A DNA stretch of 64,000 nucleotides from Minisyncoccota bacterium (GTDB lineage: Bacteria > Patescibacteriota > Minisyncoccia > Phycocordibacterales > UBA9973). The stretch lies in assembly GCA_035353995.1 (NCBI GenBank), contig DAOQAL010000001.1, forward strand, positions 308,104 through 372,103, given 5' to 3'. Both the position numbers and the translations under genes were made by a program. Positions 12,703 to 61,365 of this stretch are shown in pieces (position 1 is the stretch's first letter; each line of letters begins with the position of its first letter). The notes under the pieces are model-generated. The model was not told the origin of the DNA and did no database searches. It saw nothing but the letters and a program-made list of their open reading frames with translations.

Positions 12703-13239
12703 TTGAATTTTATTATGAAGAGCAATATGCAGAACAATAATATTATAAAAATCTTAAAATCAGACGGAATTGGGATTCTGCCGACTGACACTTTATATGG
12801 TTTGGTTGGAAGTGCTTTTTCGAAGAAAGCTATAAAGAGAATTTATGCTGTTAAAAATAGAGATAAAAATAAGAAGTTAATAGTTTTGATTTCTAGTTTG
12901 AAAGATTTAGCAAAATTTAAAATAAATATAAATAAAAAACAAGAAGAAGTTTTGAAAAAGTTTTGGCCTGGTAAAGTAAGTGTTGTGTTAAATAATATTG
13001 CTTTTAGATTACCAAAAAATAAAAACTTGATAGAAATTTTAAAAAAGACTGGACCATTAGTTGCCCCATCTGCCAATAAAGAAGGAATGAAGCCAGCTAA
13101 AAATATTAAAGAAGCGAAAAAATATTTTAGTGATGAAGTGGACTTTTATTTTGCTGGAGGAAATTTAAAATCAGAACCATCAACTTTAATAAAAATTAAT
13201 AAAATGGGTGAAATTAAGGTTCTTCGTGGTAAACTATAA
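12703..13239 (+). CDS. tsaC: L-threonylcarbamoyladenylate synthase (YrdC/TsaC domain)
   Basis: ILPTDTLYGLVGSAFSKKAIKRIYAVKNRDKNKKLIVLI is a YrdC signature; 178 aa. Confidence 0.75.
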   Translation: MNFIMKSNMQNNNIIKILKSDGIGILPTDTLYGLVGSAFSKKAIKRIYAVKNRDKNKKLIVLISSLKDLAKFKININKKQEEVLKKFWPGKVSVVLNNIAFRLPKNKNLIEILKKTGPLVAPSANKEGMKPAKNIKEAKKYFSDEVDFYFAGGNLKSEPSTLIKINKMGEIKVLRGKL

Positions 13240-13241
13240 TT

Positions 13242-14129
13242 ATGGAAGACAATATAAAAATATTTTATTCAAAAGAAAAATTTGATTATGAACTTTTAGA
13301 TACTGGGGAAGGTCAAAAACTAGAAAAAGTTGGTAAATATATTTTTGCTAGACCATTTGAAGATGCTATTTGGAAAAAATCTCAAGATAAAAAATGGCGT
13401 GAAATTGATGGAGAATTTATTTCTTCAAAAAAGGGAGAAAAAGCTGGTTGGAAAATAAAAAATAATATAGAAAAAAAATGGATTGTATCTTACAATGGAA
13501 TTCAATTTTCTGTTATGCCAACTCCATTTAGGCATTTTGGTTTTTTCCCAGAGCAAGCATCTCATTGGGATTTTATAGAAGAAAAAATATCTCATGCAAA
13601 ACAACCAATAAGATTTTTAAATCTTTTTGGTTATACAGGCGTAGCGAGTTTATTTGCACTTCGATCTGGGGCTGAAGTGACGCATGTTGATGCTTCAAAA
13701 CAAAGTATTGCTTGGGCAAAAGAAAACCAGACAATTTCTGGTTTGGAAAAAATGCCAATGAGAATAATTTGTGATGATGTACTAAAATTTTTGGAGAGGG
13801 AAGCAAAAAGAGGAAATAAATATGATTGTGTAATAATGGATCCTCCTAAATTTGGTAGAGGACCAAAAGGTGAAGTTTGGAAACTTGAGGAAATGTTGCC
13901 AAAACTTTTAAATAGTGTAAAAAAAGTTTTAAGCGATAAACCACTTTTTGTAATTTTAACTTCCTATGCTGTAGATTCTTCTTCTGTATCATTAGGTTAT
14001 GCATTGCAAGAAATTATGAAAAATTATTCTGGTAGTTTAGAAAGAGGTGAGCTTTGCGTATTAGAAAAATCAAACAATCGTTTTATTTCTTTAGCAAATA
14101 CTGCAGTTTGGAAATCATTTGAAAAATAA
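13242..14129 (+). CDS. class I SAM-dependent rRNA methyltransferase, RlmI-like
   Basis: LNLFGYTGVASLFALRSGA..VTHVDASKQSIAWAKEN and the DPPKFGRG motif. Confidence 0.6.
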   Translation: MEDNIKIFYSKEKFDYELLDTGEGQKLEKVGKYIFARPFEDAIWKKSQDKKWREIDGEFISSKKGEKAGWKIKNNIEKKWIVSYNGIQFSVMPTPFRHFGFFPEQASHWDFIEEKISHAKQPIRFLNLFGYTGVASLFALRSGAEVTHVDASKQSIAWAKENQTISGLEKMPMRIICDDVLKFLEREAKRGNKYDCVIMDPPKFGRGPKGEVWKLEEMLPKLLNSVKKVLSDKPLFVILTSYAVDSSSVSLGYALQEIMKNYSGSLERGELCVLEKSNNRFISLANTAVWKSFEK

Positions 14130-14170: not shown

Positions 14171-17056
14171 ATGAAAGAATATAACCACAAAAAAATTGAA
14201 TTAAAAGTTCAAAAAGAATGGGAAAAGAAAAAAAGTTTTCAAGCTAAAGAAAAAAAAAGCAAAAAATTTTATGGCTTGATTGAGTTTCCATACCCATCTG
14301 GTGATGGACTTCATGTAGGACATCCTAGACCTTATATTGGTATGGATGTAATTTCAAGAAAAAAAAGAATGGAAGGATATAATGTTCTTTTTCCGATTGG
14401 CTGGGATGCATTCGGTTTGCCAACAGAAAATTATGCTATTAAAACTGGTATTCATCCAAAAATAGTTACTAAAAAAAATACTGATAATTTTCGAAGACAA
14501 ATAAAAATGTTGGGAATTTCTTTTGATTGGTCACGAGAAATAAATACTACAGATCCTTCTTATTATAAATGGACTCAATGGTTGTTTTTACAATTTTTTA
14601 AAAAAGGACTTGCATATAAAAATAAAAGTGAAATTAATTGGTGTCCAAAAGATAAAATTGGTTTAGCAAATGAAGAAGTTGTAGATGGAAGATGTGAACG
14701 TTGTGGAACGTTGACTGAGAAAAAAGAAAAAGAACAATGGATGCTTGCTATAACAAAATATGCAGACAGGTTAGATAAAGATTTAGATTTAGTTGATTAT
14801 CCTGAACGTGTAAAATTATCACAAAAAAACTGGATAGGGAAATCAGAGGGAAGTGAAATAGAATTTTCAATTAAAAACTCAACTGAAAAAATAAAAGTAT
14901 TCACGACTCGCGCAGATACATTGTTTGGTGTAACTTATGTTGTCCTTGCACCAGAACATCCCCTCTTGTCAAAGACCGTCTTTGACAGATTAGGAAATAA
15001 GAAAGAGGTTGAAGAGTATATTAAAAAAGTAAAAAATAAATCAGATTTAGAAAGAACAGAAAATAAAGAAAAAAGCGGAGTAGAATTAAAAGGTATAAAA
15101 GCTATTAATCCTGCCAATGGTGAAGAGATTTCAGTTTGGGTTGCTGATTATGTTTTGTCTCAATATGGAACCGGTGCGGTTATGGCAGTACCAGCACACG
15201 ACGAAAGAGATTTTGAATTTGCAAAAAAATATGGTTTGGAAATAAAACAAGTAATAATGAGTTGCGAAAATGATACTAAAAATCCTCCTCGTGATGGATT
15301 TGAAGAAGTGAAAAGAGACACTATAATTGTTTTTTTAAAAAATAAAGAAACTGAGAAGTATGCCTTACTTAATTGGCATAATAGTCTTGAAGGAATAACA
15401 ACGGCTATAATGGGAGGAATAGAAATTGGACAAACTCCTGAGCAAGCAGTTTTGACAGAAATCCAAGAAGAAGCATCTTTAACTGGAATAAAAATAACAA
15501 AAAAACTTAGATGGATTACAGCTGCGAAATATTGTGCTTCTCATAAAAATCAAAATCGTTGCGCTATTTCGCATGTTTATTTAGCAGAAATTGATAACAT
15601 AAAAAATCAAGGCGAGATAGAGGAATATGAAAAAAATACACATACATTAATTTGGGTAGATAAAAAAGAAGTTTTAAATAAATTAACGCCAAATCATCAG
15701 AAATTTATTTGGGAACAATTATTTAATGAAACAGCTTTGGTTGATGATGGAATTTTAATGAATTCGGGAAAATTTAATGGTATGGATTCTGAAGAAGTTA
15801 GAGCAAAAATTACAGAATTTGTTGGAGGAAAAATTGTTACTAAATTTAAATTGCGTGATTGGGTTTTTTCACGTCAACGATATTGGGGTGAACCTATACC
15901 AATTGTGAATTGCCCAAAATGTGGTTTAGTTCCTTTGAAAGAAAAAGATTTGCCATTAAAATTACCTGATGTAAAAAGTTATAAACCAACAAATACTGGA
16001 GAATCTCCACTTGCTGGAATTTCAAAATGGGTAAATACAAAATGTCCTAAGTGTAAAGGAAAAGCAAAAAGAGAAACTGACACAATGCCAAACTGGGCTG
16101 GAAGTTCATGGTATTATTTGCGTTACACTGATCCAAAAAATAAAAATAAATTTGCCGATATGAAAAAATTAAAATATTGGCTTGGCAAAAATCCTAAGCA
16201 TGGAGGAGTAGATTGGTATAACGGAGGAATGGAGCATACAACATTGCATCTTTTGTATTCTCGTTTTTGGCATAAATTTTTGTATGATTTAAAATTAGTT
16301 CCAACTGCAGAACCGTATGCAAAGAGAACCAGCCATGGAATGATTTTAGGTGCTGGTGGTGTGAAGATGTCAAAGTCTCTTGGTAATGTTGTGAACCCAG
16401 ATCAGATTGTAAAAACTTATGGTGCAGATACGTTAAGAGTTTATGAAATGTTTATGGGTCCATTTGAAGATGCTGCTGTTTGGAATACAGAAAGTATTAT
16501 TGGTTCAAGAAGATTTATAGAAAAAGTTTGGAGGATTGGAGAAAAAATAAAATCTTCTAGCTCTCACACTACTGAGAGAAAAAAGAATTCTTCTAATTCT
16601 ATTGTTAAACTTCTACACAAGACGATTAAAAAAGTTTCTGAAGATATTGAAGCAATGCGTTTCAATACAGCAATTTCATCTATGATGATTTTGACAACAG
16701 AGATGGAAAAAGCAGAATCAGTTTCAAAAGATGACTATAAAAAGTTTTTACAAATACTTTCTCCTTTTGCACCACACATTGCAGAAGAAATTTGGAATTC
16801 ATTTGGAGAAAAAAAGAGTATTAATTATTCAAAATGGCCATCTTGGGATGAAAATTTAATAAAAGATGAAGAAATAAAAATTATAATTCAAGTAAATGGA
16901 AAAGTTAGAGCAGAAATTATGATTTCTGCAGACGAAAATGAAGAAAATATCAAAAAAAATGCAACAATGCATCCTTCAGTACAAAAATTTATCGAAAATA
17001 GGGAAATCAAGAGGATAATTTACGTAAAAAACAAACTTGTAAACTTAGTAATTTAA
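14171..17056 (+). CDS. leuS: leucyl-tRNA synthetase carrying an inserted Nudix-like domain
   Basis: HIGH (HVGHP) and KMSKS motifs; editing domain with TTRADT and GTGAVMAVPAHDERDFEFA. At aa ~365-525 there is a ~140-aa insertion relative to E. coli LeuRS holding a Nudix box, GGIEIGQTPEQAVLTEIQEEASL. Confidence 0.95.
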   Translation: MKEYNHKKIELKVQKEWEKKKSFQAKEKKSKKFYGLIEFPYPSGDGLHVGHPRPYIGMDVISRKKRMEGYNVLFPIGWDAFGLPTENYAIKTGIHPKIVTKKNTDNFRRQIKMLGISFDWSREINTTDPSYYKWTQWLFLQFFKKGLAYKNKSEINWCPKDKIGLANEEVVDGRCERCGTLTEKKEKEQWMLAITKYADRLDKDLDLVDYPERVKLSQKNWIGKSEGSEIEFSIKNSTEKIKVFTTRADTLFGVTYVVLAPEHPLLSKTVFDRLGNKKEVEEYIKKVKNKSDLERTENKEKSGVELKGIKAINPANGEEISVWVADYVLSQYGTGAVMAVPAHDERDFEFAKKYGLEIKQVIMSCENDTKNPPRDGFEEVKRDTIIVFLKNKETEKYALLNWHNSLEGITTAIMGGIEIGQTPEQAVLTEIQEEASLTGIKITKKLRWITAAKYCASHKNQNRCAISHVYLAEIDNIKNQGEIEEYEKNTHTLIWVDKKEVLNKLTPNHQKFIWEQLFNETALVDDGILMNSGKFNGMDSEEVRAKITEFVGGKIVTKFKLRDWVFSRQRYWGEPIPIVNCPKCGLVPLKEKDLPLKLPDVKSYKPTNTGESPLAGISKWVNTKCPKCKGKAKRETDTMPNWAGSSWYYLRYTDPKNKNKFADMKKLKYWLGKNPKHGGVDWYNGGMEHTTLHLLYSRFWHKFLYDLKLVPTAEPYAKRTSHGMILGAGGVKMSKSLGNVVNPDQIVKTYGADTLRVYEMFMGPFEDAAVWNTESIIGSRRFIEKVWRIGEKIKSSSSHTTERKKNSSNSIVKLLHKTIKKVSEDIEAMRFNTAISSMMILTTEMEKAESVSKDDYKKFLQILSPFAPHIAEEIWNSFGEKKSINYSKWPSWDENLIKDEEIKIIIQVNGKVRAEIMISADENEENIKKNATMHPSVQKFIENREIKRIIYVKNKLVNLVI

Positions 17057-17147: not shown

Positions 17148-20100
17148 ATGTCAGAAAAACATAAGAATAAAAGAGTTTTACAACTAATAAGAAATATTTT
17201 ACAAATACTTAAACCAAAGTTGTCTTTTCACTATATTGCATACACTACTTTAGTAGCTTTGGTTGTTTTTTCTTTAGTAAATTTAGTTGGTGCTACAACT
17301 CCAAACCCTGGTCACTCATGGTCTGAAGTTGGAGATGGTGTTTTTGCAGTAACAAATAATCAAACAGCAATTCGCACTTACACTTTTCCAGATGCAAATG
17401 CAACTGTACTTACTACTAACGCACTTGTTACTGTTGCACAAGGTGGAACTGGTGCAAATACTTTAACAGGAATTTTAATTGGAAATGGAACTTCTGCTTT
17501 TACATCTGTAGCACTTACTGCAGGACAATCAATTCGAATGAATTCAGGTGGAACAGCTTATGAAGGTTTTACTCCTGGAACAGGAAATGTTAATTCTATC
17601 TCTGTCGCAACTTCAAATGGTTTTGCTGGTTCATCTTCTGGTGGTTCAAATCCAATCTTAACTTTATCTACTACTATCTCTGGAATGTTGAAAGGAAATG
17701 GAACTGCAATCAGTGCAGCAACAGATGGTTCTGATTTTCTTTCTTCTTCGACAGGATGGAAATTAAATGGACAAGCTCTCGGCACAAAAAAAACTCTTGG
17801 GTCTACTGATGGATATGCAATTGGTTTTCTAACTAATAATTCAGAAAGAATGACAATACTTTCTGGTGGTAACATTGGTATCGGTGTAACTTCACCGACA
17901 GCAGTTTTACATTTGAAAGCTGGTACTGCAACAGCAGGAACTGCACCATTAAAATTTGCATCAGGAGTATTACTAACAACTCCAGAAACAGGAGCAATGG
18001 AATTTGATGGAACTAATTTATATTTCACACCAGTTGATTTACGAAAGACAATTGCTTTTACAGAAGACATTGCATCTGGCTACGTTCCATACACAGGTGC
18101 AACTGCTGACGTTAATCTTGGAGCTTTTGATTTAACAACTACAGATCTTAATGTAAGTGGTATCGCTAATTTTACTGGAAGCGTTGCTGTTAACACTGAC
18201 CCAGACAACAACACTAGTGGTTTTGAATATGGAAATGGTTATGATCCATCTTCAAGTTATTATTACAATGAAAGATTTCGAGTAAATAGTTTTATGGAAA
18301 CACCACATATGTCTTTAGGTGTTGCTTCAAACTTTTTACTATATTCTGAAGATTTTTCAAATGCCGCTTGGGTAAAAACAAGTATAGGTTCAGTTAGTGC
18401 AAATGGTGTTAATGCTCCTAATGGATCAACTACTGCAGAAAATATTCCAGCTGGTTCTGCTTCAACTGCTAATATAGCTCAAACAATTACAAACAGTACT
18501 ACAGGATACTGGTCTGCTGGTGTTTGGGCAAGAACTCAAAGTGGAACAGCTACTATAGATTTGCAAATTGATAATGGATCAGCAGAAATTGGAACTCCTA
18601 AAACAGTTACAGTGGATACAAAATGGCGCTTCTTTGGTGTTGCTCAAAATTTTAGTCCTTCTTCTAATACAACAAAAACTTTTAAAATAACTTCTGGAAC
18701 AACAGCAATTTCTTTATGGGGTGCAAGAATGAATCAAGGTGAAACGATAAATTCATATCGTGCTACAACAAGTTCAAATTCTTCTACTCCTACATTTGGT
18801 GCATTTTTCAACAACACAACAATTTACGGTACTCTTTCTGGAAGTGCAAGTTCAGCTGGCTATGCTACTTATTCAAATAGTGGAATTTATGGTGGAGTAA
18901 CATTATCAAATACTACTGGCAATGCTGGAAAGTGGGAATTATTAGGATATGTAACTTTAACATATAACTCTACTTATGATTATGGACATTCTTGGGATTA
19001 TGAAGTCAACCTGAAAGAAATTAATAATGATGATTCAGCAATTTCACAAGTTGATTATGAGGATATTACTTTAAAACTTAAAGGAAATTTAGCAGAAGCA
19101 ACTAGTACTGCTACTTTCAATTCCGCTGTACCAACTTTCTCTATTGATGTTTCTGGTGCTACGCAATTAACTTCTAGTGATTTTGCAGCTGTTGTTTATT
19201 CGACAAGTACTTCAACTAAGGTAATTAGATATTATGTAAAATTGCCAGCTGCTAATTCTCATTACATGATTGTACCTATTAACTATCGTGGAGTTAGCTA
19301 TAACAGTACATTAGGTATAAGTACTTCTTACGTTTCTTGGACAACTTCTTCTAGTACTGCTGTGATAACAACCTTACCAACTCCACCTGCTGGTCAAGGT
19401 TCTGTAGTAAATGGAAATATTCTTTACACAACATACAAAGGCAATGGAATATTTAGTGGACTATTAAGTGGTACAGCTTTGAAATCTGCTAAGTGGTATC
19501 CAGGTGCTGACTCTACAACTGCAATTCAAATTAATAAAGCAGATGGTTTAACAAATATTATAAATATTGATACAACAAATGGAAGAATGGGTATCGGTAC
19601 AACTTTACCAACAGCATTACTAAATCTAGCAGCCGGTACTGCATCAGCAGGAACTGCTCCACTCAAATTTACATCAGGAACATTATTAACTACACCAGAG
19701 GATGGATCAGTAGAATTTGATGGAACTCACTATTATGTAACAGTTGGTTCTACTAGATACCAATTAGATCAACAAGCTCCAGGTGGAGGTATGGTGTACC
19801 CAGGATCAGGAATTGCAGTCTCAACAGGTTCTGCTTGGGGAACTTCAATCAGTGGAACATCTTCACAATTTGTAAAAGGTGATGGAAGTTTGGATTCAAA
19901 TACATACTTAACAACTTCTTCTGCTTCTTCAACTTATGTTCCTTACACTGGAGCAACAAGTGCAGTAGATTTAGGTGTTCATAATCTTACTGTTGATACA
20001 AATACATTGTTTGTAGATTCAACAAATCATAGAGTTGGAATCGGAACAACAAGTCCTACATCTAAGTTATATGTTAGTAGTGGAGGCGGAGTTAATTCTG

Positions 20101-23100
20101 GCATTGTTATTAAATCTGATGGAACAACTGGGACATATGCATCATTAGATTATGTAAATAAAAACAATGTAGCATTTCAGACAGGCTTATATGATTCTGG
20201 TAATGCTTTCTTTTATATGCCTTCAACTGGAAATAATATTGGATTCTATACGAACGATCTTGAAAGAATGACTATAGCAAAAACAGGTAATGTCGGAATT
20301 GGTACAACGAGTCCAACAGTTCCATTAGACATCACTGGAGCGGTAAACATATCAACTGGAAATTTAGATTTAGACAATACAACAAATGCAAATCAATATG
20401 GAGTGATCACAAAAAATGGGATCAGATTCATTCACAATTTTAATTATGGAAACAACGGTACTGTAACGACAGAAGGACATAATTTATTTATTGGAGAAAA
20501 TGCCGGTAACTTTACGATGGGATCAACGGCAAATTATGCTAATTATTCTTCAAGCAATGTTGGAATCGGTTATTCTACGTTAAGTTCGAATACAACTGGA
20601 TACTATAACTCTGCTGTAGGAATTTATGCTCTTTATTCTAACACCACAGGATACTCTAACTCTGCAATAGGAACACATGCTCTTATGCTTAATACCACAG
20701 GGTACGCTAACTCTACAGTAGGAAATGATGCTCTTTATAATAATACTTCAGGGTACAAGAACTCTGTAATTGGAAGTACAGCTCTCTTTAATAATACAAC
20801 AGGATACTCTAACTCTGCGATGGGATATGAAGCCGGCCGCTATGTTACAGGAAATGTAGCTAACACAACCAGTGATTATAGTATATACCTTGGTGCTAAT
20901 ACCAAAGCTCTTGCTGATGATGATCAAAATGAAATTGTAATAGGTTACGATGCTACGGGTGCCGGTTCAAACACTGCAGTAATAGGTAGCAGTTCTTTAA
21001 CTTCTGTATACCTCGGAAGTTCTACACCTAGCGCTAGACTATACACTAAAGGTATAACGTTATCTGCAGGTACAGCAACTGCTGGAACTGCTCCATTGAA
21101 GTTCACATCAGGAACATTGTTAGGAACAACGGAAGCAGGAACAATGGAATTTAATGGAACACATTTATACTTTACAGTAGCAAATAGCGGAACAAGATAT
21201 CAATTAGATCAACAAGCTCCAGGTGGAGGTATGGTTTACCCAGGAGCAGGTATTCCAATTTCAACAGGTTCTGCTTGGGGAACTTCAATCAGTGGAACAT
21301 CTTCACAATTTGTAAAAGGGGATGGAAGTTTGGATTCAAATACATACTTAACAACTTCTTCTGCATCTTCAACTTATGTTCCATATACTGGAGCAACAAG
21401 TGCAGTAGATTTAGGTGTTCATAATCTTACTGTTGATACAAATACATTGTTTGTAGATTCAACAAATCATTTTGTTGGTATTGGAACAACAACACCGAGT
21501 GTAAAACTAAATGTACTTGGTGTAACTGCGTTGCAATCTGGTGATGCTGATGGTGCTCTACGGATTGGTGCTGATGTTTTGGCTACTACACTTTCATCAA
21601 ATGTAAGAAAATTGGGAAGAGTAACAGCTCCTTCTTATAGTAATACATATTATTATTCATTGTTTTCTGCTGATAGTGATACGGGTGGTGATGGAATAGA
21701 ATTTGGAGGTAGAGCAGGAGCATTAAATTCATCTCCAACATATATTTCATTTGCTACAACTCCAACAGCAGGAAGTAGCGCTGGAAATGCGGAACGAATG
21801 AGAATAATAGGTAATGGAAACATTGGTATCGGCATAGCTTCACCAACAGCTAGATTACATTTACCAGCTGGTACAGCAACAGCAGGAACTGCTCCACTAA
21901 AATTTACATCAGGAACATTGTTAGGAACAACGGAAGCAGGAACAATGGAATTTAATGGAACACATTTATACTTTACAGTAGCAAATAGCGGAACAAGATA
22001 TCAATTAGATCAACAAGCTCCAGGTGGAGGTATGGTTTACCCAGGAGCAGGAATTCCAATTTCAACAGGCAGTGCTTGGGGAACTTCAATCAGTGGAACA
22101 TCTTCACAATTTGTAAAAGGGGATGGAAGCTTAGATTCAAATACATATTTAACTTCTGCTTCTTTGTCTGGTTATGTTCCTTATACTGGTGCAACCACAA
22201 ATGTAGTTCTCGGAGCAAATACTCTTTCAACAACTTCAGGTTTAATTTCTCCAAAACTTTATCCTGCAAGTGATTCAACAACAGCAATACAATTTAACAA
22301 AGCAGATGGAACAACAAATATTTTAAATATTGATACGACGAATTCTAGAGTTGGAATTGGGACAACAAGTCCAAGTGTTAAATTAGAAGTAGCGGGACAA
22401 GGTAAATTCATAAGTACAACTTTTCCAGTTCTTGATATAGTTAGAGATACAACGACTACTGCTGGTGGAGTTTATGGTGGTGCTAAATTAGAGAGAATTA
22501 TGACTGGCGGAACATCAGTCAATGGTACTGGTATAGGTTTTTATTTTAAGAATCCAGACTCAGCAGGAAATTCTACTTTTTCAGGTATTTTTGGTTCAGC
22601 ACTTTCAAGCGTAACAGATGGAAGTGAAGTCGGAGATGTTATTGTTTCTGCTGCTTGGCAAGGAGGAGATCCTTATTTAAATCAACACTTAGTTGTTAGA
22701 GCAACCGGCGCAACGACAGGTAACGTTTTGGTTCCGAATGGTAATGTCGGAATTGGAACAACTTCACCAAATCAACAATTAGAAATTACTCAAAACTTTA
22801 GACTTCCTTCTACAACTTATAATAGTGGAAATCCTTATGGGATAATTTACAAAGGAACAAATCCATTCATTCATGATTTCAATTATGGAAACAACGGTAC
22901 TGTAACGACAGAAGGACATAATTTATTTATTGGTGAAAGTGCAGGTAACTTTACAATGGGATCAACGGCAACATTATTAAGTCAATCATCAAACAATATT
23001 GGAATAGGGTATAATTCTCTTTCTGTAAATACTACTGGTTATGGCAATACAGCTATCAGCAATTATTCTTTGGAATCAAATACAACAGGTACTCAAAACT

Positions 23101-26100
23101 CTGCTATTGGTTATAAATCTCTGTCTAGTAATACTACTGGTAGCGTTAACTCTGCTTTTGGACCTTATTCTCTTTCTGGTAATACTACTGGTAGTAACAA
23201 TTCTGCTTTTGGATCTTATTCTCTTTCTGGTAATACTACTGGTATCTTAAATGTCGCTTTTGGTCAAAATGCTCTTTCTGGTAATACTACTGGTAATTAT
23301 AACTCTGCTTTAGGATATAACGCTGGTAGTTTTATTGCTGATGGTTCAACATCGAATACTTTTGGTTCAAATAGTTTATTTTTGGGCAGTTATTCAAGAG
23401 CTCTTGCTAATAATCAAACAAATCAAATTGTAATTGGTTATAATGCTATCGGTAACGGAAGCAATACAGCAACAATTGGAAACAGTTCTATATTAAGAAC
23501 ATATCTAAGAGGAGTAAATCTAGCAGCCGGTACTGCATCAGCTGGAACTGCTCCACTAAAATTTACATCAGGAACATTATTAGGAACACCTGAGACAGGA
23601 GCGATGGAATTTGATGGTTCTCACTATTACATAACAATAGGTTCAACTCGTTATCAATTAGATCAACAAGCTCCAGGTGGGGGTATGGTTTATCCAGGAG
23701 CGGGCATTCCAGTTTCGACAGGTTCAGCTTGGGATACATCTAAAACGGCACCTACGGGAGACATCGTTGGAACAACTGATACACAAGATCTTACTAACAA
23801 AACATACAATGGACTTTCTTTGTTAGGAAACAATACTGATTTTAATTCTTTTGTTGGTTACAATACTGGTCTTAATATTCCAAGCGGAGCACAATGGAAC
23901 TCTTTCTTTGGTTATGAAGCAGGAAAGGGAAGCGCAAGTACAAGTTATAATTATTCTAATACTGGAATAGGATATCAATCTTTGTATTCCATTACAGTTG
24001 GTAGTAATAACTCTGCACTAGGAAATAAGTCTCTGTACTATAATACTTCAGGATGGTCTAATACTGCAGTAGGAGATAGTTCACTTTCTTCTAATACTGA
24101 AGGTTATCTTAATGTTGCATTAGGTGTTGATTCTTTATCAAGTAATATTACAGGTTACGATAACTCTGCTATCGGTAGTTCTTCTATGTACTCTAACACT
24201 ACAGGTTACTATAACATCGCAATAGGAGGTGGTTCTATGTATTATAATACTACTGGAAATTATAACTCTGCTACAGGATATTCTTCTTTATCAAATAACA
24301 CAACAGGTAATATTAATTCTGCACTAGGATATGTAGCCGGATACTTTATAGCTGACAACTCAACGCCAAACACTACATCAGATTATAGTTTGTATTTAGG
24401 TGCATATACCAAAGCTCTTGCAGATAATGATCAAAATGAAATTGTAATTGGTTATGACACAACAGGTAATGGAAGCAACACAGCAACAATTGGAAACAGT
24501 TCTATATTAAGAACATATTTAAGAGGAGTAAATTTAGCAGGAGGTACAGCAACTGCAGGAACTGCTCCATTAAAATTTACATCAGGAACATTGTTAGGAA
24601 CTACAGAAGGTGGAGCAATGGAATTTGATGGTTCACATTTGTACTTCACAATAGCTGATAGCGGAACAAGATATCAATTAGATCAACAAGGAGGTATGGT
24701 TTATCCAGGAGCAGGTATTGCAATTTCAACAGGAAGTGCTTGGGGAACATCAATATCAGGAACATCCTCACAGTTTGTAAAAGGGGATGGAAGTTTAGAT
24801 TCAAATACATACTTAACAACTTCTTCTGCTTCTTCAACTTATGTTCCTTACACTGGAGCAACCACAGATGTAAATCTTGGAACACATACTCTTGCTTCAG
24901 GTTCAATAGATATCGCTACAGGTAATTTAGATTTAGATAACACTACTTATGCAAATCAATATGGATTGATTACCAAAAATGGAACCAGATTCATTCATAA
25001 TTTTTCCTACGGATTAAATGGAAATAATGTAACCCCAGAAGGTCGCAATTTATTTATTGGTGAAGGTGCCGGTAATTTTACGATGGGATCGGATGCAACT
25101 TACTATAGTTATTCTTCAAACAATATTGGAGTCGGTTATTCTACATTAAGTTTCAATACAACTGGATACGGTAACTTTGCGGTAGGAAGTTATGCTCTTT
25201 ATTACAACACCACAGGATACGGTAACTCTGCAATAGGAAAAAGTGCTCTGTTCTCTAATACTGAAGGATTCTTTAACTCTGCATTAGGAGATTCTGCTCT
25301 TAAATCTAATACTACAGGATATAGAAATATCTCAATGGGAAGTTACGCTCTTAATTCAAACACCACAGGAAGCCATAATTCTGCATTAGGATATAATACT
25401 GGTCGCTATATTGCAAACGGAAGCACTGGTAATACCACTAGTGACTACAGTGTATATCTTGGTGCTATGACAAAAGCTCTTGCCGACGATGATCAAAACG
25501 AAATTGTAATCGGTTACAACGCCACCGGTGCCGGTTCAAACACTGCCGTAATCGGAAACAGTTCTGTAACTTCGGTATATCTCGGAAGCTCTACTGCTGG
25601 CGCAAGACTCTACACTAATGGCGTAACGTTATCTGCCGGTACAGCAACAGCAGGAACTGCACCACTAAAATTTACATCAGGAACATTACTAGGAACAACA
25701 GAAGGTGGAGCAATGGAATTTGATGGTTCACATTTGTACTTTACTATAGCTGATAGCGGAACAAGATATCAATTAGATCAACAAGGAGGTATGGTTTACC
25801 CAGGATCAGGAATTGCAATCTCAACAGGAAGTGCTTGGGGAACTTCAATCAGTGGAACATCTTCACAATTTGTAAAAGGGGATGGAAGTTTGGATTCAAA
25901 TACATACTTAACCTCTGCATCTTTGTCTGGTTATGTTCCTTACACTGGTGCAACCACAAATGTAGTTCTCGGAGCAAATACTCTTTCAACAACTTCAGGT
26001 TTAATTTCTCCAAAACTTTATCCTGCAAGTGATTCAACAACAGCAATACAATTTAACAAAGCAGATGGAACAACAAATATTTTAAATATTGATACGACAA

Positions 26101-29100
26101 ATGGAAGAGTGGGAATGGGTACGACGAGTCCATCATCAATGCTTCATATTTATGATACTACTGCTAGCGGAACATTTGCTGATGGATTATATTTACAAGC
26201 AGGAAATGATGCAAATGCAATTAGGGTACGTTTGAAAAATACTAATTCTGATTTTTTTATTAACGCATACGGAACTGGAGCAATCGGTGCATTAGCAAAT
26301 TCAATTGGATTTTTTGCTAGTGGAAGTTCAACTAATGATTTTATTATTGGGCATACTGGAACAACTTCTGGAAATGATATTAGATTTTTTACAAATAATG
26401 ATTATTCAGATGCAAATGAATTAGTGATTACACAAGGCGGACTTGTTGGAATGGGAACATCAACTCCAACTGGAAAATTAAATATAATAAATACATCAGA
26501 ACAATTACGTATTGGATATAGTTCTAGTGTTTATTATTCAACTACAATTGATTCTACAGGGACAGTTATATTTGATTCTACTGGTGGCGCTTCATCTCGA
26601 TTTTCATTTGCAGACAATCTAGGTATCGGAACAACTTCACCAAGCAATATACTTTCTCTAGGTGGAACAACAGCTAGAACAATTTGGATGGAACGTAACA
26701 CAACAGCAGGAACTGCAGGACAGGCACTAACTTTGTTCTCTGGTGGTGCATATTCTGGTGGAACTAATTTGAATGGTGGAGATTTATATTTAAAATCTGG
26801 TATTTCTACTGGTACTGGATCATCATCTATGCATTTTCTTACTGCAACAGCAGGAAGTAGTGGAACAGCTGACAATACTCCAACCGAAAAAATGACTATT
26901 CTTGCTAATGGTAAAGTAGGTATTGGAAATACAAATCCATCATCAAAATTAACAGTTACTGATGTGAATAGTATTTTCTTCGTTCCAAACCAGGGAGCTA
27001 CTGGTGAAATTCCAGCAGGAACTGCAATGTCTACAAGTTCTAACTTTACATTTTTGGGAGATGGAACTGGTGGAGTTGGAAATGGAGTTATGGTTGCTTA
27101 TTACAATCAAACACAATGGCTTTCCGCCGTACAGACTGCAAACGTTAGTAGTGGTTATGGAAATTTATTGTTAATGAAATCTGGTGGATCTGTAGGTGTA
27201 GGTACTTCTGCTCCAACAGCTAGATTACATTTAGGAGCAGGATCAGCTACAGCAGGAACTGCTCCATTAAAATTTACATCAGGAACATTACTAACAACAG
27301 CTGAGGCAGGAGCAATGGAATTTGATGGAACTCACTATTATGTAACAGTTGGTTCTACTAGATACCAATTAGATCAACAAGCTCCAGGTGGAGGTATGGT
27401 TTATCCAGGAGCAGGTATTCCAATTTCAACAGGTTCTGCTTGGGGTACATCTATATCAGGAACATCTTCACAGTTTGTAAAAGGGGATGGAAGTTTAGAT
27501 TCAAATACATACTTAACAACTTCTTCTGCATCTTCAACTTATGTTCCATATACAGGTGCAACCACAAATGTAGTTCTCGGAGCAAATACTCTTTCAACAA
27601 CTTCAGGTTTAATTTCTCCAAAACTTTATCCTGCAAGTGATTCAACAACAGCAATACAATTTAACAAAGCAGATGGGACAACAAATATTTTAAATATTGA
27701 TACGACAAATGGGAGAGTGGGAATTGGGACAACAAGTCCTACTAAAAAATTAGAAGTATCTGGTAATTTAGGTGCTGGAGGAATATTTAATGTTAACTCT
27801 TCGACTCCAGCAGATTTCGTTGGTTTGGAAACCTCTTCTGGTCGTTCAGCTATTGTTTTCAACAATTCAAATTCCAGGATGTATTATGATTCTTCAGCAA
27901 ATACTTTTAATATGTTTCCAGTTGTTGGAACATATGATGACCCATCAAGTTGGAATTATTCAACGATGTCTTATGCCTTAACTAGTCAAACTCTATATTT
28001 GAATGGTGCTGGAGGAGTTGAAATTGGTCAAGGAGGTTTGATTTCTACAAAAATAGTTGATACAACTACTGATTATCAAAATTATACTGGTTCTACTTTC
28101 TCCATGTGGAAGAGATTAGGAAACAACACAGTAAATACATTAAATGGATTGAACTTAAATTATGGTGGATATTGGAGTGCTGCTGGAACTATTACTGATT
28201 CTGCTGGAATATACTCTGCTTTTGCAGCTGCTGATTCTTCGGCTGCTAATTTTACAAATGTTTATGGTATTAAAACAAGTTTTACTAATGTAGGAACTGG
28301 TACAATTACAAATCAATATGGTATTTATATTCCATCTGATTCAGTTGCTACAAATGTATATGGTATATCATCAAATATTGCTAGTGGAACTAATAAATGG
28401 AATATGTATGTTGCAGGTACAGCTAATAACTATTTTGCCGGCAATGTTGGAATCGGAACGACGACCCCACAAGCTGCATTAAATGTAATTGGAGACGTAA
28501 TGTTAGGATACAATTCAACAGGGCAAAAAATTTATCCATATTATTATAGTGCTACGAATTATAATGCAATTTCTTCTGATAGCTCAGGTGCTATGACATT
28601 TATCACTGGTGTTACATCTCCTTCAGAAAGAATGAGAATTGATAATTCTGGTTATGTTGGAATAGGTAATGCTTCTCCAGCAACGACTCTTGATATTACA
28701 GGAGCAGGTGGCTCTCCTTCTGGCACACCATCTTTTCCTGTTAGAGTTGTGTCTGGAACGAATACTAATCCAGGTATGATTTTTGAACGAAGTGATGCAA
28801 GTAAATTTGTTAACCTTTGGACGGGAAGTGGAGCAGCAATATTAGGATTTACTGATACTGCTTCAAGGATGGCTATTGGAACTTATACTTACGCAGATAG
28901 ATATTCTACTGGTTTCCCAACAAAAGAAATTTTGTCTCTTCTTCCTAGTGGAAATGTTGGAGTAGGAGTTACAAATCCTACAGCAAAACTTCATTTAAAA
29001 GCATCTGATGGGACAGCAGGAAGTGCATCATTAAAAATTACAGATGGAACATTGCTATCAACTCCAGAAGCAGGAGCAATAGAATTTGTTGGAACAAGTC

Positions 29101-60948: not shown

Positions 60949-61365
60949 TTATGCTAACTTCTGAATGATTTCTTTAATATATGGTCCAAATTTATTATTA
61001 TCAAGTTTTAGCCATTCTGCTGGAGTTAGCCATTGATACTCTCTTTCCGAGTCTTGTTTAAATTCACTAATATCATCAATAAATACTTTATAATCAGCAA
61101 AAATCATATTAGTAGTTTCTGAATTTGAAATAGGGATATTTAATCCATTAGTTAATCCTATGAATTCAAAATTTTTAATTTCTAAATTGGTTTTTTCTTT
61201 AACTGAATTAATTAATGTCTCCTCTATTGTTTTTCCCCATTCAACTTTTGCATTTATACAAGTATATTTTTCCCCTTGACTAGGAGTAGTTCTTAAAAAT
61301 AACTTACCATCTGAATTAATAATAAAGGAACCAACTACAAATTTTGGATACTTTTTATCTTCCAT
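60949..61365 (-). CDS. Nudix-fold protein with a degenerate Nudix box
   Basis: KVEWGKTIEETLINSVKEKTNLEI aligns to GGKIEMGETPEQAVVRELQEEVGI, but the REUxEE residues are largely substituted; 138 aa. Confidence 0.4.
   Translation of the reverse strand: MEDKKYPKFVVGSFIINSDGKLFLRTTPSQGEKYTCINAKVEWGKTIEETLINSVKEKTNLEIKNFEFIGLTNGLNIPISNSETTNMIFADYKVFIDDISEFKQDSEREYQWLTPAEWLKLDNNKFGPYIKEIIQKLA

Follow-up and report, generated by a model that had tools for sequence, protein, structure and literature searches.

Why does a leucyl-tRNA synthetase carry what looks like a nucleotide hydrolase in the middle of its proofreading domain? The question is raised by the leuS gene in a 64,000-nucleotide stretch of a Minisyncoccota genome (contig DAOQAL010000001.1, positions 308,104 to 372,103 of the forward strand; this whole stretch is called the window here). 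An initial annotation of the window had noted that the leucyl-tRNA synthetase (LeuRS) encoded there contains an inserted Nudix domain, and a Pfam match, a fold model, structure searches and an alignment gap all bear this out. The insert belongs to a distinct Nudix family of Patescibacteria which is associated with aminoacyl-tRNA synthetases, and its members have been exchanged as cassettes between nearly identical host genes. Judging from the conserved residues, what is apparently an active nucleotide hydrolase is embedded, in a large part of this group, in the proofreading domain of an essential enzyme.

The host protein is a bacterial LeuRS. It scores 1014 bits with TIGR00396 (leuS_bact; cutoff 548), is homologous over its full length to the enzyme of Thermus thermophilus (1h3n; E 2e-217) and possesses all synthetase and editing motifs in intact form (Table 1); the HIGH, KMSKS, T-rich and editing Asp motifs are common to it and to the LeuRS structures of T. 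thermophilus (1H3N) and E. coli (4AQ7). A public protein labelled Candidatus Paceibacterota (P0002) is identical to it. In comparison to the T. thermophilus enzyme (Tth), the window LeuRS has an additional 164-residue Nudix segment between Tth residues 368 and 374 and lacks the leucine-specific domain that precedes KMSKS (Tth 580-637, spanned by query residues 728 to 732, positions 16352-16366). This domain is found in T. thermophilus and E. coli LeuRS but is not universal, so its absence does not affect the assignment.

The cassette is in frame and lies late in the editing domain CP1, about 15 residues past the editing Asp motif. The Pfam model of the editing domain (PF13603) matches residues 219-370 with its positions 1-148 of 185 and resumes in a second stretch after the insert; as the insert splits this model, it lies inside CP1 and not between domains. 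Its boundaries were set by comparison with close relatives, between two connector strands, and the alignment with 1h3n, which places query residues 368 to 520 opposite Tth residues 368 to 374, also locates the extra segment within CP1. PF00293 (NUDIX) matches with 29.6 bits (E 7.7e-7) in the whole protein, above the gathering threshold of 21.1, and with 33.8 bits (E 4e-8) if the insert is searched alone, covering model positions 3-131 of 134, and the profile match is therefore significant. An AlphaFold model based on 31 diverse inserts (pLDDT 94.1, pTM 0.88) has the predicted alpha/beta/alpha fold of Nudix proteins, the Nudix domain reaches a pLDDT of about 86-96 in a model of full-length LeuRS, and a Foldseek search of the PDB returned Nudix enzymes only (best E 6.5e-10). 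No anomaly of composition was detected at the insert, its GC content of 0.28-0.34 being similar to that of the flanks. On the strength of profile and model, residues 363-526 form a self-contained Nudix module spliced into a surface loop of CP1.

The Nudix box of the window allele, GGIEIGQTPEQAVLTEIQEEASL, had been described as near-canonical with threonine in place of the arginine. This holds for the three glutamates that bind the metal (E430, E433 and E434, i.e., E16, E19 and E20 of the box), which are kept together with G1 and the hydrophobic positions. However, besides R15 (T429), two further positions deviate that had been missed, E7 (Q421) and G22 (S436), and the box does not match the full consensus GX5EX7REUXEEXGU.

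How widespread is this arrangement? The insert is present at the same point in 113 of the 120 best LeuRS relatives, the other seven having 2-42 residues there; the survey of relatives that the initial annotation had proposed thus shows the insertion to be shared. An earlier impression of rarity (a word-indexed search with the insert alone had returned a single fragment) was overturned by full-length and exhaustive profile searches. An exhaustive HMMER search with an insert profile against 1.84 billion cluster representatives yielded 538 clusters at E<=1e-10, of which 177 reach E<=1e-30. In a survey of contigs from one genome per species, queried with the whole LeuRS, insert-bearing leuS genes were found in Komeili-, Moran-, Falkow-, Berkel-, Taylor-, Nomura-, Magasanik- and Saccharibacteria, Paceibacteria and others; of the 80 loci returned, which were ranked by similarity to an insert-bearing query, only about 30 have the domain. 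Classification of the profile matches against the LeuRS body assigned about 215 of 283 domain copies to the window's site, after residue 362 (site A). Further copies are located at residue ~209 (site B1; P0122, P0123, P0161), residue ~238 (B2; P0126, P0127, P0130), residue ~630 (C; P0132, P0213, P0247) and residues ~143-188 (D; P0273). A single LeuRS can carry up to three copies (P0122, P0123, P0273), and tandems of two to three are also present in P0128. Duplication and fusion of Nudix domains have been documented (Lin et al. 2009, as cited in PMC5389931), but in these LeuRS relatives the tandem copies are inside another enzyme. The family is furthermore found in a class II enzyme, prolyl-tRNA synthetase (ProRS; P0246), between the anticodon-binding and C-terminal domains. 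This is rare (5 of the 120 nearest ProRS), and the nearest insert-less relatives of the Nudix-bearing ProRS are labelled Nano- or Woesearchaeota (DPANN archaea). Finally, about twenty profile matches are proteins of 155-200 amino acids with a Met start, encoded on contigs of up to 53 kb, and therefore represent free-standing genes.

The 283 extracted copies fall into 81 clusters at 45% identity. The box glutamates, R382 ahead of the box and K459, N462, R463, E487 and W495 downstream of it are retained in nearly all copies (Table 1), so that the active site appears to be under selection everywhere, at any LeuRS site, in ProRS and in free-standing proteins, which is the pattern of an enzyme. The pair E7/R15 is canonical at both positions in 212 copies, at neither in 59 and mixed in 12 (counts that take no account of relatedness), and the double change occurs in 14 clusters in which the rest of the conserved positions is kept. 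In our reading, two interacting residues have been replaced jointly in Q421/T429, a change that is tolerated, recurrent and compensated; activity is therefore probably kept, although perhaps modified. In MutT, mutagenesis reportedly showed the three box glutamates to be far more important for catalysis than E7. The window allele falls in a cluster of 17 alleles that all have the variant box, and many more positions of this cluster show no change down to about 58% identity; the allele's amino-acid identity to these relatives is 74-78%. Inserts and LeuRS bodies have diverged to a similar extent (P0002 versus P0008, 77% and 74%; P0002 versus P0038, 63% and 65%), which indicates that the window-type cassette is not decaying.

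These data bear on the idea that the module of the window allele is non-catalytic and serves as a nucleotide sensor, a dimerisation surface or a structural brace of CP1. The Nudix clan does include non-enzymatic members (PMC5389931), E7, R15 and G22 of the box are lost, and the Pfam domain match is weak in some window-type alleles. Nevertheless, we regard this as improbable, as all 17 window-type alleles keep E430, E433, E434, E487, K459, N462 and R463 and the E7/R15 change is coupled in clusters that keep everything else. A bracing function is also difficult to reconcile with insert-less alleles in close relatives (P0079, with a body 89% identical to that of the insert-bearing P0004, and P0061, whose body is the closest to that of the window at 82%), in which CP1 is structurally fine without the insert. 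The module is therefore an accessory that LeuRS as such can do without.

The cassette has not shared the history of its host gene. Window-type inserts are not grouped in a neighbour-joining tree of LeuRS bodies, and direct comparisons show that the decoupling is real: P0052 and P0064 are 98% identical in the body and 37% in the insert, P0007 and P0050 95% and 29%, P0032 and P0040 95% and 37%, with most 40-residue windows outside the insert being 100% identical in all three pairs. At the DNA level, contig L007 from a JGI sample and contig L008 from an ENA sample share 99.64% identity over 2229 nucleotides, comprising the upstream gene and leuS codons 1 to ~360, and 97.8% identity over 2625 nucleotides past the cassette, whereas no BLASTN match was found across the intervening 511-517 nucleotides. 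The breakpoints are sharp, with 100 of 100 nucleotides identical up to ...KKYNL and near-identity again at ...DSE. Similarly, in the leuS genes of two NCBI genomes, L009 (window-type cassette) and L010 (canonical cassette), nucleotides 361-1020 are 100% identical and nucleotides 1681-2800 are 96-100% identical, but identity across the cassette is only 35-60%. As there is zero synonymous change in the flanks, rapid divergence by point mutation is excluded, and the segment has been replaced. In all insert-bearing pairs taken together, the identity of the inserts hardly depends on that of the bodies (Spearman 0.18), and seven of the 11 pairs with bodies at least 90% identical have inserts at most 37% identical; note that the database was clustered at 90% identity, which hides pairs that are alike throughout and inflates this fraction. 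The cassette of P0007 is 90% identical to that of P0006, though their bodies are only 83% identical, which would fit transfer between lineages.

As all data come from metagenome assemblies, insert and swaps might in principle result from mis-assembly or chimeric contigs; one related contig (L083) is in fact a fold-back artefact. We consider this explanation extremely improbable. The identical 961-residue protein is encoded on five contigs from several sources, one of them 421 kb long, hundreds of independent assemblies have the insert in frame, and the swap contigs (L007, L008, L009 and L010) come from four separate projects. Moreover, at the left flank, different species share only short exact runs (median 11 nucleotides; at least 31 nucleotides in 0.4% of pairs).

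This behaviour, with an unrelated-looking module in an identical host gene, is unusual for a core translation gene and suggests that either diversity is selected for or the loop is remarkably permissive and prone to recombination. In the first case, the cassette might be a module engaged in biological conflict with a variable antagonist, and diversifying or frequency-dependent selection would then act on it. Its task might be to eliminate a toxin or signal of nucleotide nature, or to reverse a modification that a toxin has made at tRNA ends; LeuRS and ProRS would be platforms bringing it to tRNA, and ancient cassette types would be moved by recombination across the conserved LeuRS flanks. The deep, discrete types shuffled among hosts, the independence of insert and body, the two DNA-level replacements, the P0007 cassette with its closer counterpart in a more distant host, the catalytic core that stays fixed while the remainder varies, and the presence/absence alleles with their variable copy number all fit such a role. 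In contrast, no defence or toxin genes adjoin leuS in the contexts examined, matches in PADLOC and PHROGs are to generic Nudix proteins only, and the fraction of swapped pairs is inflated as described above. In addition, the first 360 nucleotides of leuS are themselves mosaic between L009 and L010 (70-86% identical), which points to frequent mosaic recombination in these populations; recombination may therefore simply be frequent everywhere. On balance, we find a conflict function unlikely. If it were true, a housekeeping synthetase would be a platform for a diversifying accessory enzyme.

What, then, might the substrate be? The initial annotation had compared the domain to MutT and proposed a hydrolase. 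The residues that mark Nudix enzymes are indeed kept, but the likeness to MutT did not hold: profiles and models point to diadenosine polyphosphate (ApnA), RppH and polyphosphate hydrolases as the nearest characterised relatives. Among solved structures, the family profile matches the Ap4A (diadenosine tetraphosphate) hydrolase of lupin best (4.4e-9), followed by the decapping effector AvrM14, NudB and the Ap4A hydrolase of Aquifex. Among 31 family members, RppH models of NCBIfam match 30, NudB models 23 and MutT models 11-12, all far under the curated cutoffs. The window allele scores 15.9-19.9 bits with the MutT models TIGR00586 and NF008044 (cutoffs 97.9 and 148) and 15-17 bits with the PRK00714 models of RppH (116-259), which reach E 4e-10 at best in other members and remain under the cutoffs there as well. 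It is no NudC either, since the sequence after the box, TGIKITKKLRWITAAKYCASHK, lacks SQPWPFPxS and NF001299 gives 16-19 bits versus 158. Nudix specificity markers are located ~17 residues after the box (PMC5389931). The proline 15-16 residues after the box that marks ADP-ribose hydrolases is absent (A and K at 452-453; S/A and K/E/R in the family). The ApnA marker of Dunn et al., a tyrosine ~16-18 residues after the box according to the summary in PMC5389931, is present as Y454 in the X-loop position. Across the 283 copies, position +17 is F in 208 and Y in 61, and position +18 is Y in 149 and F in 100. Taken together, the profile and NCBIfam matches, the aromatic residue at +17 and the invariant basic residues argue for a polyphosphate-bridged substrate, and the sequences point to dinucleoside polyphosphates (NpnN), nucleoside triphosphate (NTP)-like compounds, or capped or polyphosphorylated 5' ends of RNA rather than to a substrate of MutT proper.

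Would the domain then act on RNA ends in cis, as an RppH-like enzyme that frees the synthetase-bound tRNA of a 5'-polyphosphate, a non-canonical cap or some other modification of its end? CP1, the host domain of the insert, binds the 3' end of the tRNA, beside the 5' end of the acceptor stem, so that the location is suggestive, as are the two different synthetases that serve as hosts, the frequency of RppH among the NCBIfam matches and the presence of RppH and decapping effectors among the structural neighbours. However, the RppH scores are far under the cutoffs, and the occurrence of the family at four to five LeuRS sites as well as free-standing argues against a precise geometry to the bound tRNA. 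We therefore judge an RNA-end function in cis unlikely, albeit not negligible.

The free-standing members were inspected in a sample of six contigs. P0135 ends 2 nucleotides ahead of a Nudix-bearing leuS; P0151 (contig L003) clusters with methionyl-tRNA synthetase (MetRS), TatD and HD-domain protein genes, with an insert-less leuS five genes further; P0143 is two genes away from ProRS; P0195 is two genes upstream of a Nudix-bearing ProRS (L006 1533-4693; with a ProRS-C_1 domain); and P0188 adjoins another Nudix gene. The sixth, P0184, is considered below. Four of six contexts near a synthetase gene exceed, as a rough estimate from a small sample, the expectation for about 20 such genes in a small genome. 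In L003 (7464-10389), an insert-less LeuRS (823 amino acids) is directly preceded by a gene for a Nudix protein of 145-149 amino acids (GGTLEFGETLEECVRRERKEE). This protein gives no evidence of an unfused ancestor of the cassette, since its box is of the classical MutT-like kind and the family signature is missing.

The explanation that we favour, although with slightly less than an even chance in our estimate, is that the module is active and works as an autonomous domain that hydrolyses NpnN or related polyphosphate compounds, with co-expression and proximity linking it to synthetases. The domain would act on a polyphosphate-bridged nucleotide, most likely on dinucleoside polyphosphates of the Ap4A type that synthetases make from the aminoacyl-adenylate, or else on related Np4/5'-polyphosphate ends of RNA. 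Fusion would provide co-expression and nearness to the source of the substrate. The cassette is swapped between strains by homologous recombination, so that it and the host gene differ in history. NpnN were first found among the products of reactions that synthetases carry out, and RppH is able to hydrolyse Np4N caps (PMC9283932), which gives the fusion a chemical logic; a role of the Nudix module in Ap4A removal, as suggested in the initial annotation, is plausible.

Several observations weigh against this proposal. The window allele falls short of three consensus positions of the box and could be less active or inactive. LeuRS is not known as a strong producer of Ap4A. Every match to a characterised subfamily is far under its curated cutoff, the Tyr marker is a weak one with Phe at +17 in most family members, and the structurally closest protein, the free-standing MutT/Nudix protein 2AZW of Enterococcus faecalis (a structural-genomics entry; 19% identity), is itself uncharacterised, so it carries no information on the substrate. 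The shuffling of ancient cassette types among near-identical hosts is unexpected for a plain housekeeping enzyme. Finally, P0184 (L004 4016-5513) starts 4 nucleotides after fpg/mutM and overlaps a SpoU methylase gene of convergent orientation; of the contexts inspected, only this one hints at the handling of 8-oxo-guanine. It would suit an enzyme of MutT-type sanitation, acting on 8-oxo-(d)GTP or other damaged NTPs and fused, in a reduced genome, to an essential gene of high expression for the sake of that expression alone, without a functional tie to LeuRS. The JGI annotation of the free-standing members as 'MutT', MutT models among the best single NCBIfam matches of the window allele (E 5e-4) and the general capacity of LeuRS to host unrelated enzymes can be cited in favour of sanitation. 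Nonetheless, it seems distinctly unlikely to us, in view of the low MutT scores, the smaller number of members matched by MutT than by RppH models, and the recurrent synthetase neighbourhood and fusion, which are unexpected for a pure passenger.

Other in-frame domains are indeed hosted by the LeuRS loops at residues ~238 and ~585 of relatives. Alpha/beta hydrolases (Abhydrolase_5, Ser_hydrolase) are found in P0034, P0082, P0025 and P0112 (residue ~238) and in P0217 (residue ~585), and P0131 has two classical Nudix domains at the ~238 site. A DUF559 endonuclease-like domain (PF04480, 112.6 bits) is present at ~238 in P0029, P0057, P0096 and P0023. It is flanked on both sides by similar peptides, 'PSL.LPEG.G' and 'PSL.EGQGW', which suggests that it may be a mobile in-frame element able to promote gene conversion at leuS. 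Foreign domains in these loops weaken the argument that every insert serves leucylation and keep alive the reading of the cassette as a passenger. An extra segment of 201 amino acids in P0004 and P0030 has no Pfam match, and for this reason its identification as a Ham1/ITPase-like domain was dropped.

The fold and the host are thus known, whereas their combination and the cassette behaviour appear to be undescribed. In agreement with the initial annotation, which was aware of no such fusion, we found no paper on a Nudix-bearing synthetase in a full-text literature search, whose coverage leaves out most subscription journals; we also found no curated model for one, and a clan-wide review of Nudix proteins makes no mention of synthetases (PMC5389931). 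The architecture is nevertheless already visible in public databases through automatic Pfam matches. The insert is 13-20% identical to the Nudix dinucleoside-polyphosphate and 5'-polyphosphate hydrolases compared (Ap4A hydrolases of lupin and Aquifex, T. thermophilus Ndx1, Mycobacterium tuberculosis Rv2985, DIPP, E. coli RppH/NudH, and NudB) and falls under every curated family cutoff. In contrast to these enzymes, the family is embedded in a synthetase and has a signature of its own, R...K-x2-N-R...E...H...W, and the window allele lacks E7, R15 and G22 of the box. That aminoacyl-tRNA synthetases accrete catalytic domains is well known from eukaryotes; in bacteria it is rare. The isoleucine-tRNA ligase with an N-acetyltransferase domain (NF040702) is likewise an editing synthetase of class I to which a catalytic domain has been added, but both synthetase and domain are different, and the window protein (56 bits versus a cutoff of 1999) is not a member. 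The present system allows one to ask whether removal of NpnN or of RNA-end structures is coupled to the synthetases that make them, and it identifies permissive loops, i.e., LeuRS sites that tolerate insertion of foreign domains. Whether diversity of the cassette is selected for or the loop is simply permissive, the outcome would inform us how ultra-small, recombining episymbionts remodel essential proteins.

Table 1. Features of the window LeuRS and of its Nudix cassette; counts give the retention of a residue among the domain copies of the family.
Feature	Residues	Positions	Strand	Remark
leuS, bacterial-type leucyl-tRNA synthetase, insert host	961 aa	14171..17056	+	one long open reading frame
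HIGH motif, as HVGH	48-51	14312..14323	+	
CP1 editing domain before insert	~219-362	14825..15256	+	PF13603
T-rich editing motif TTRADT		14903-14920	+	
Editing Asp motif GTGAVMAVPAHDERD		15167-15211	+	
Left connector strand IKQVI		15242-15256	+	
Inserted Nudix cassette	363-526 (164 aa)	15257..15748	+	gap versus 1h3n; absent in 7 close relatives; model
Pfam NUDIX (PF00293) match	382-513	15314..15709	+	begins at near-invariant R382
Arg ahead of box	R382			Arg in 273/283
Nudix box GGIEIGQTPEQAVLTEIQEEASL	415-437	15413..15481	+	
Box E16	E430			Glu in 281/283
Box E19	E433			Glu in 277/283
Box E20	E434			Glu in 283/283
X-loop position, +17 from L437	Y454	15530..15532	+	ApnA Tyr marker present; weak marker
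Family signature	K459-N-Q-N462-R463	15545..15559	+	K459: Lys in 279/283
Signature Asn	N462			Asn in 276/283
Signature Arg	R463			Arg in 260/283
Downstream conserved positions	E487...H491...W495	15629..15655	+	E487: Glu in 259/283
Downstream His	H491			His in 234/283
Downstream Trp	W495			Trp in 273/283
Right connector GILMNSGKFNG and remaining CP1 back to catalytic core		15749..15850	+	second PF13603 stretch
KMSKS motif	732-736	16364..16378	+	

A separate Nudix-like gene of the window (60949-61365), for which a degenerate box had been reported, does have one; it is located on the minus strand, encodes 138 amino acids, matches PF00293 just over the threshold (24.2 bits) and is not detected by the profile of the synthetase-associated family. 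On contig L083, a second domain-bearing open reading frame was discarded as the same gene, leuS being readable on both strands of the folded-back sequence; this leuS contains two copies of an in-frame repeat of about 50 amino acids. Upstream of leuS in the window (12703-14129, plus strand) are genes for a protein of the Sua5/YciO/YrdC family (129 bits) and for a SAM-dependent methyltransferase (PF10672). In L008 and L010, too, a methyltransferase gene (PF10672 or PF03602) is found 5' of leuS, with a DUF5671 gene between. Directly 3' of leuS, an open reading frame of 4856 amino acids (17148-31718, plus strand) begins with an N-terminal hydrophobic segment and contains recurring blocks, e.g., 'AGTAPLKFTSGTLL...EFDG..LYFT' and 'YQLDQQAPGGGMVYPGAGI..STGSAWGTSISGTSSQFVKGDGSLDSNTYL'. 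Its GC content is ~0.37 versus ~0.30 around leuS, and it looks like a gene for a giant repetitive surface protein.

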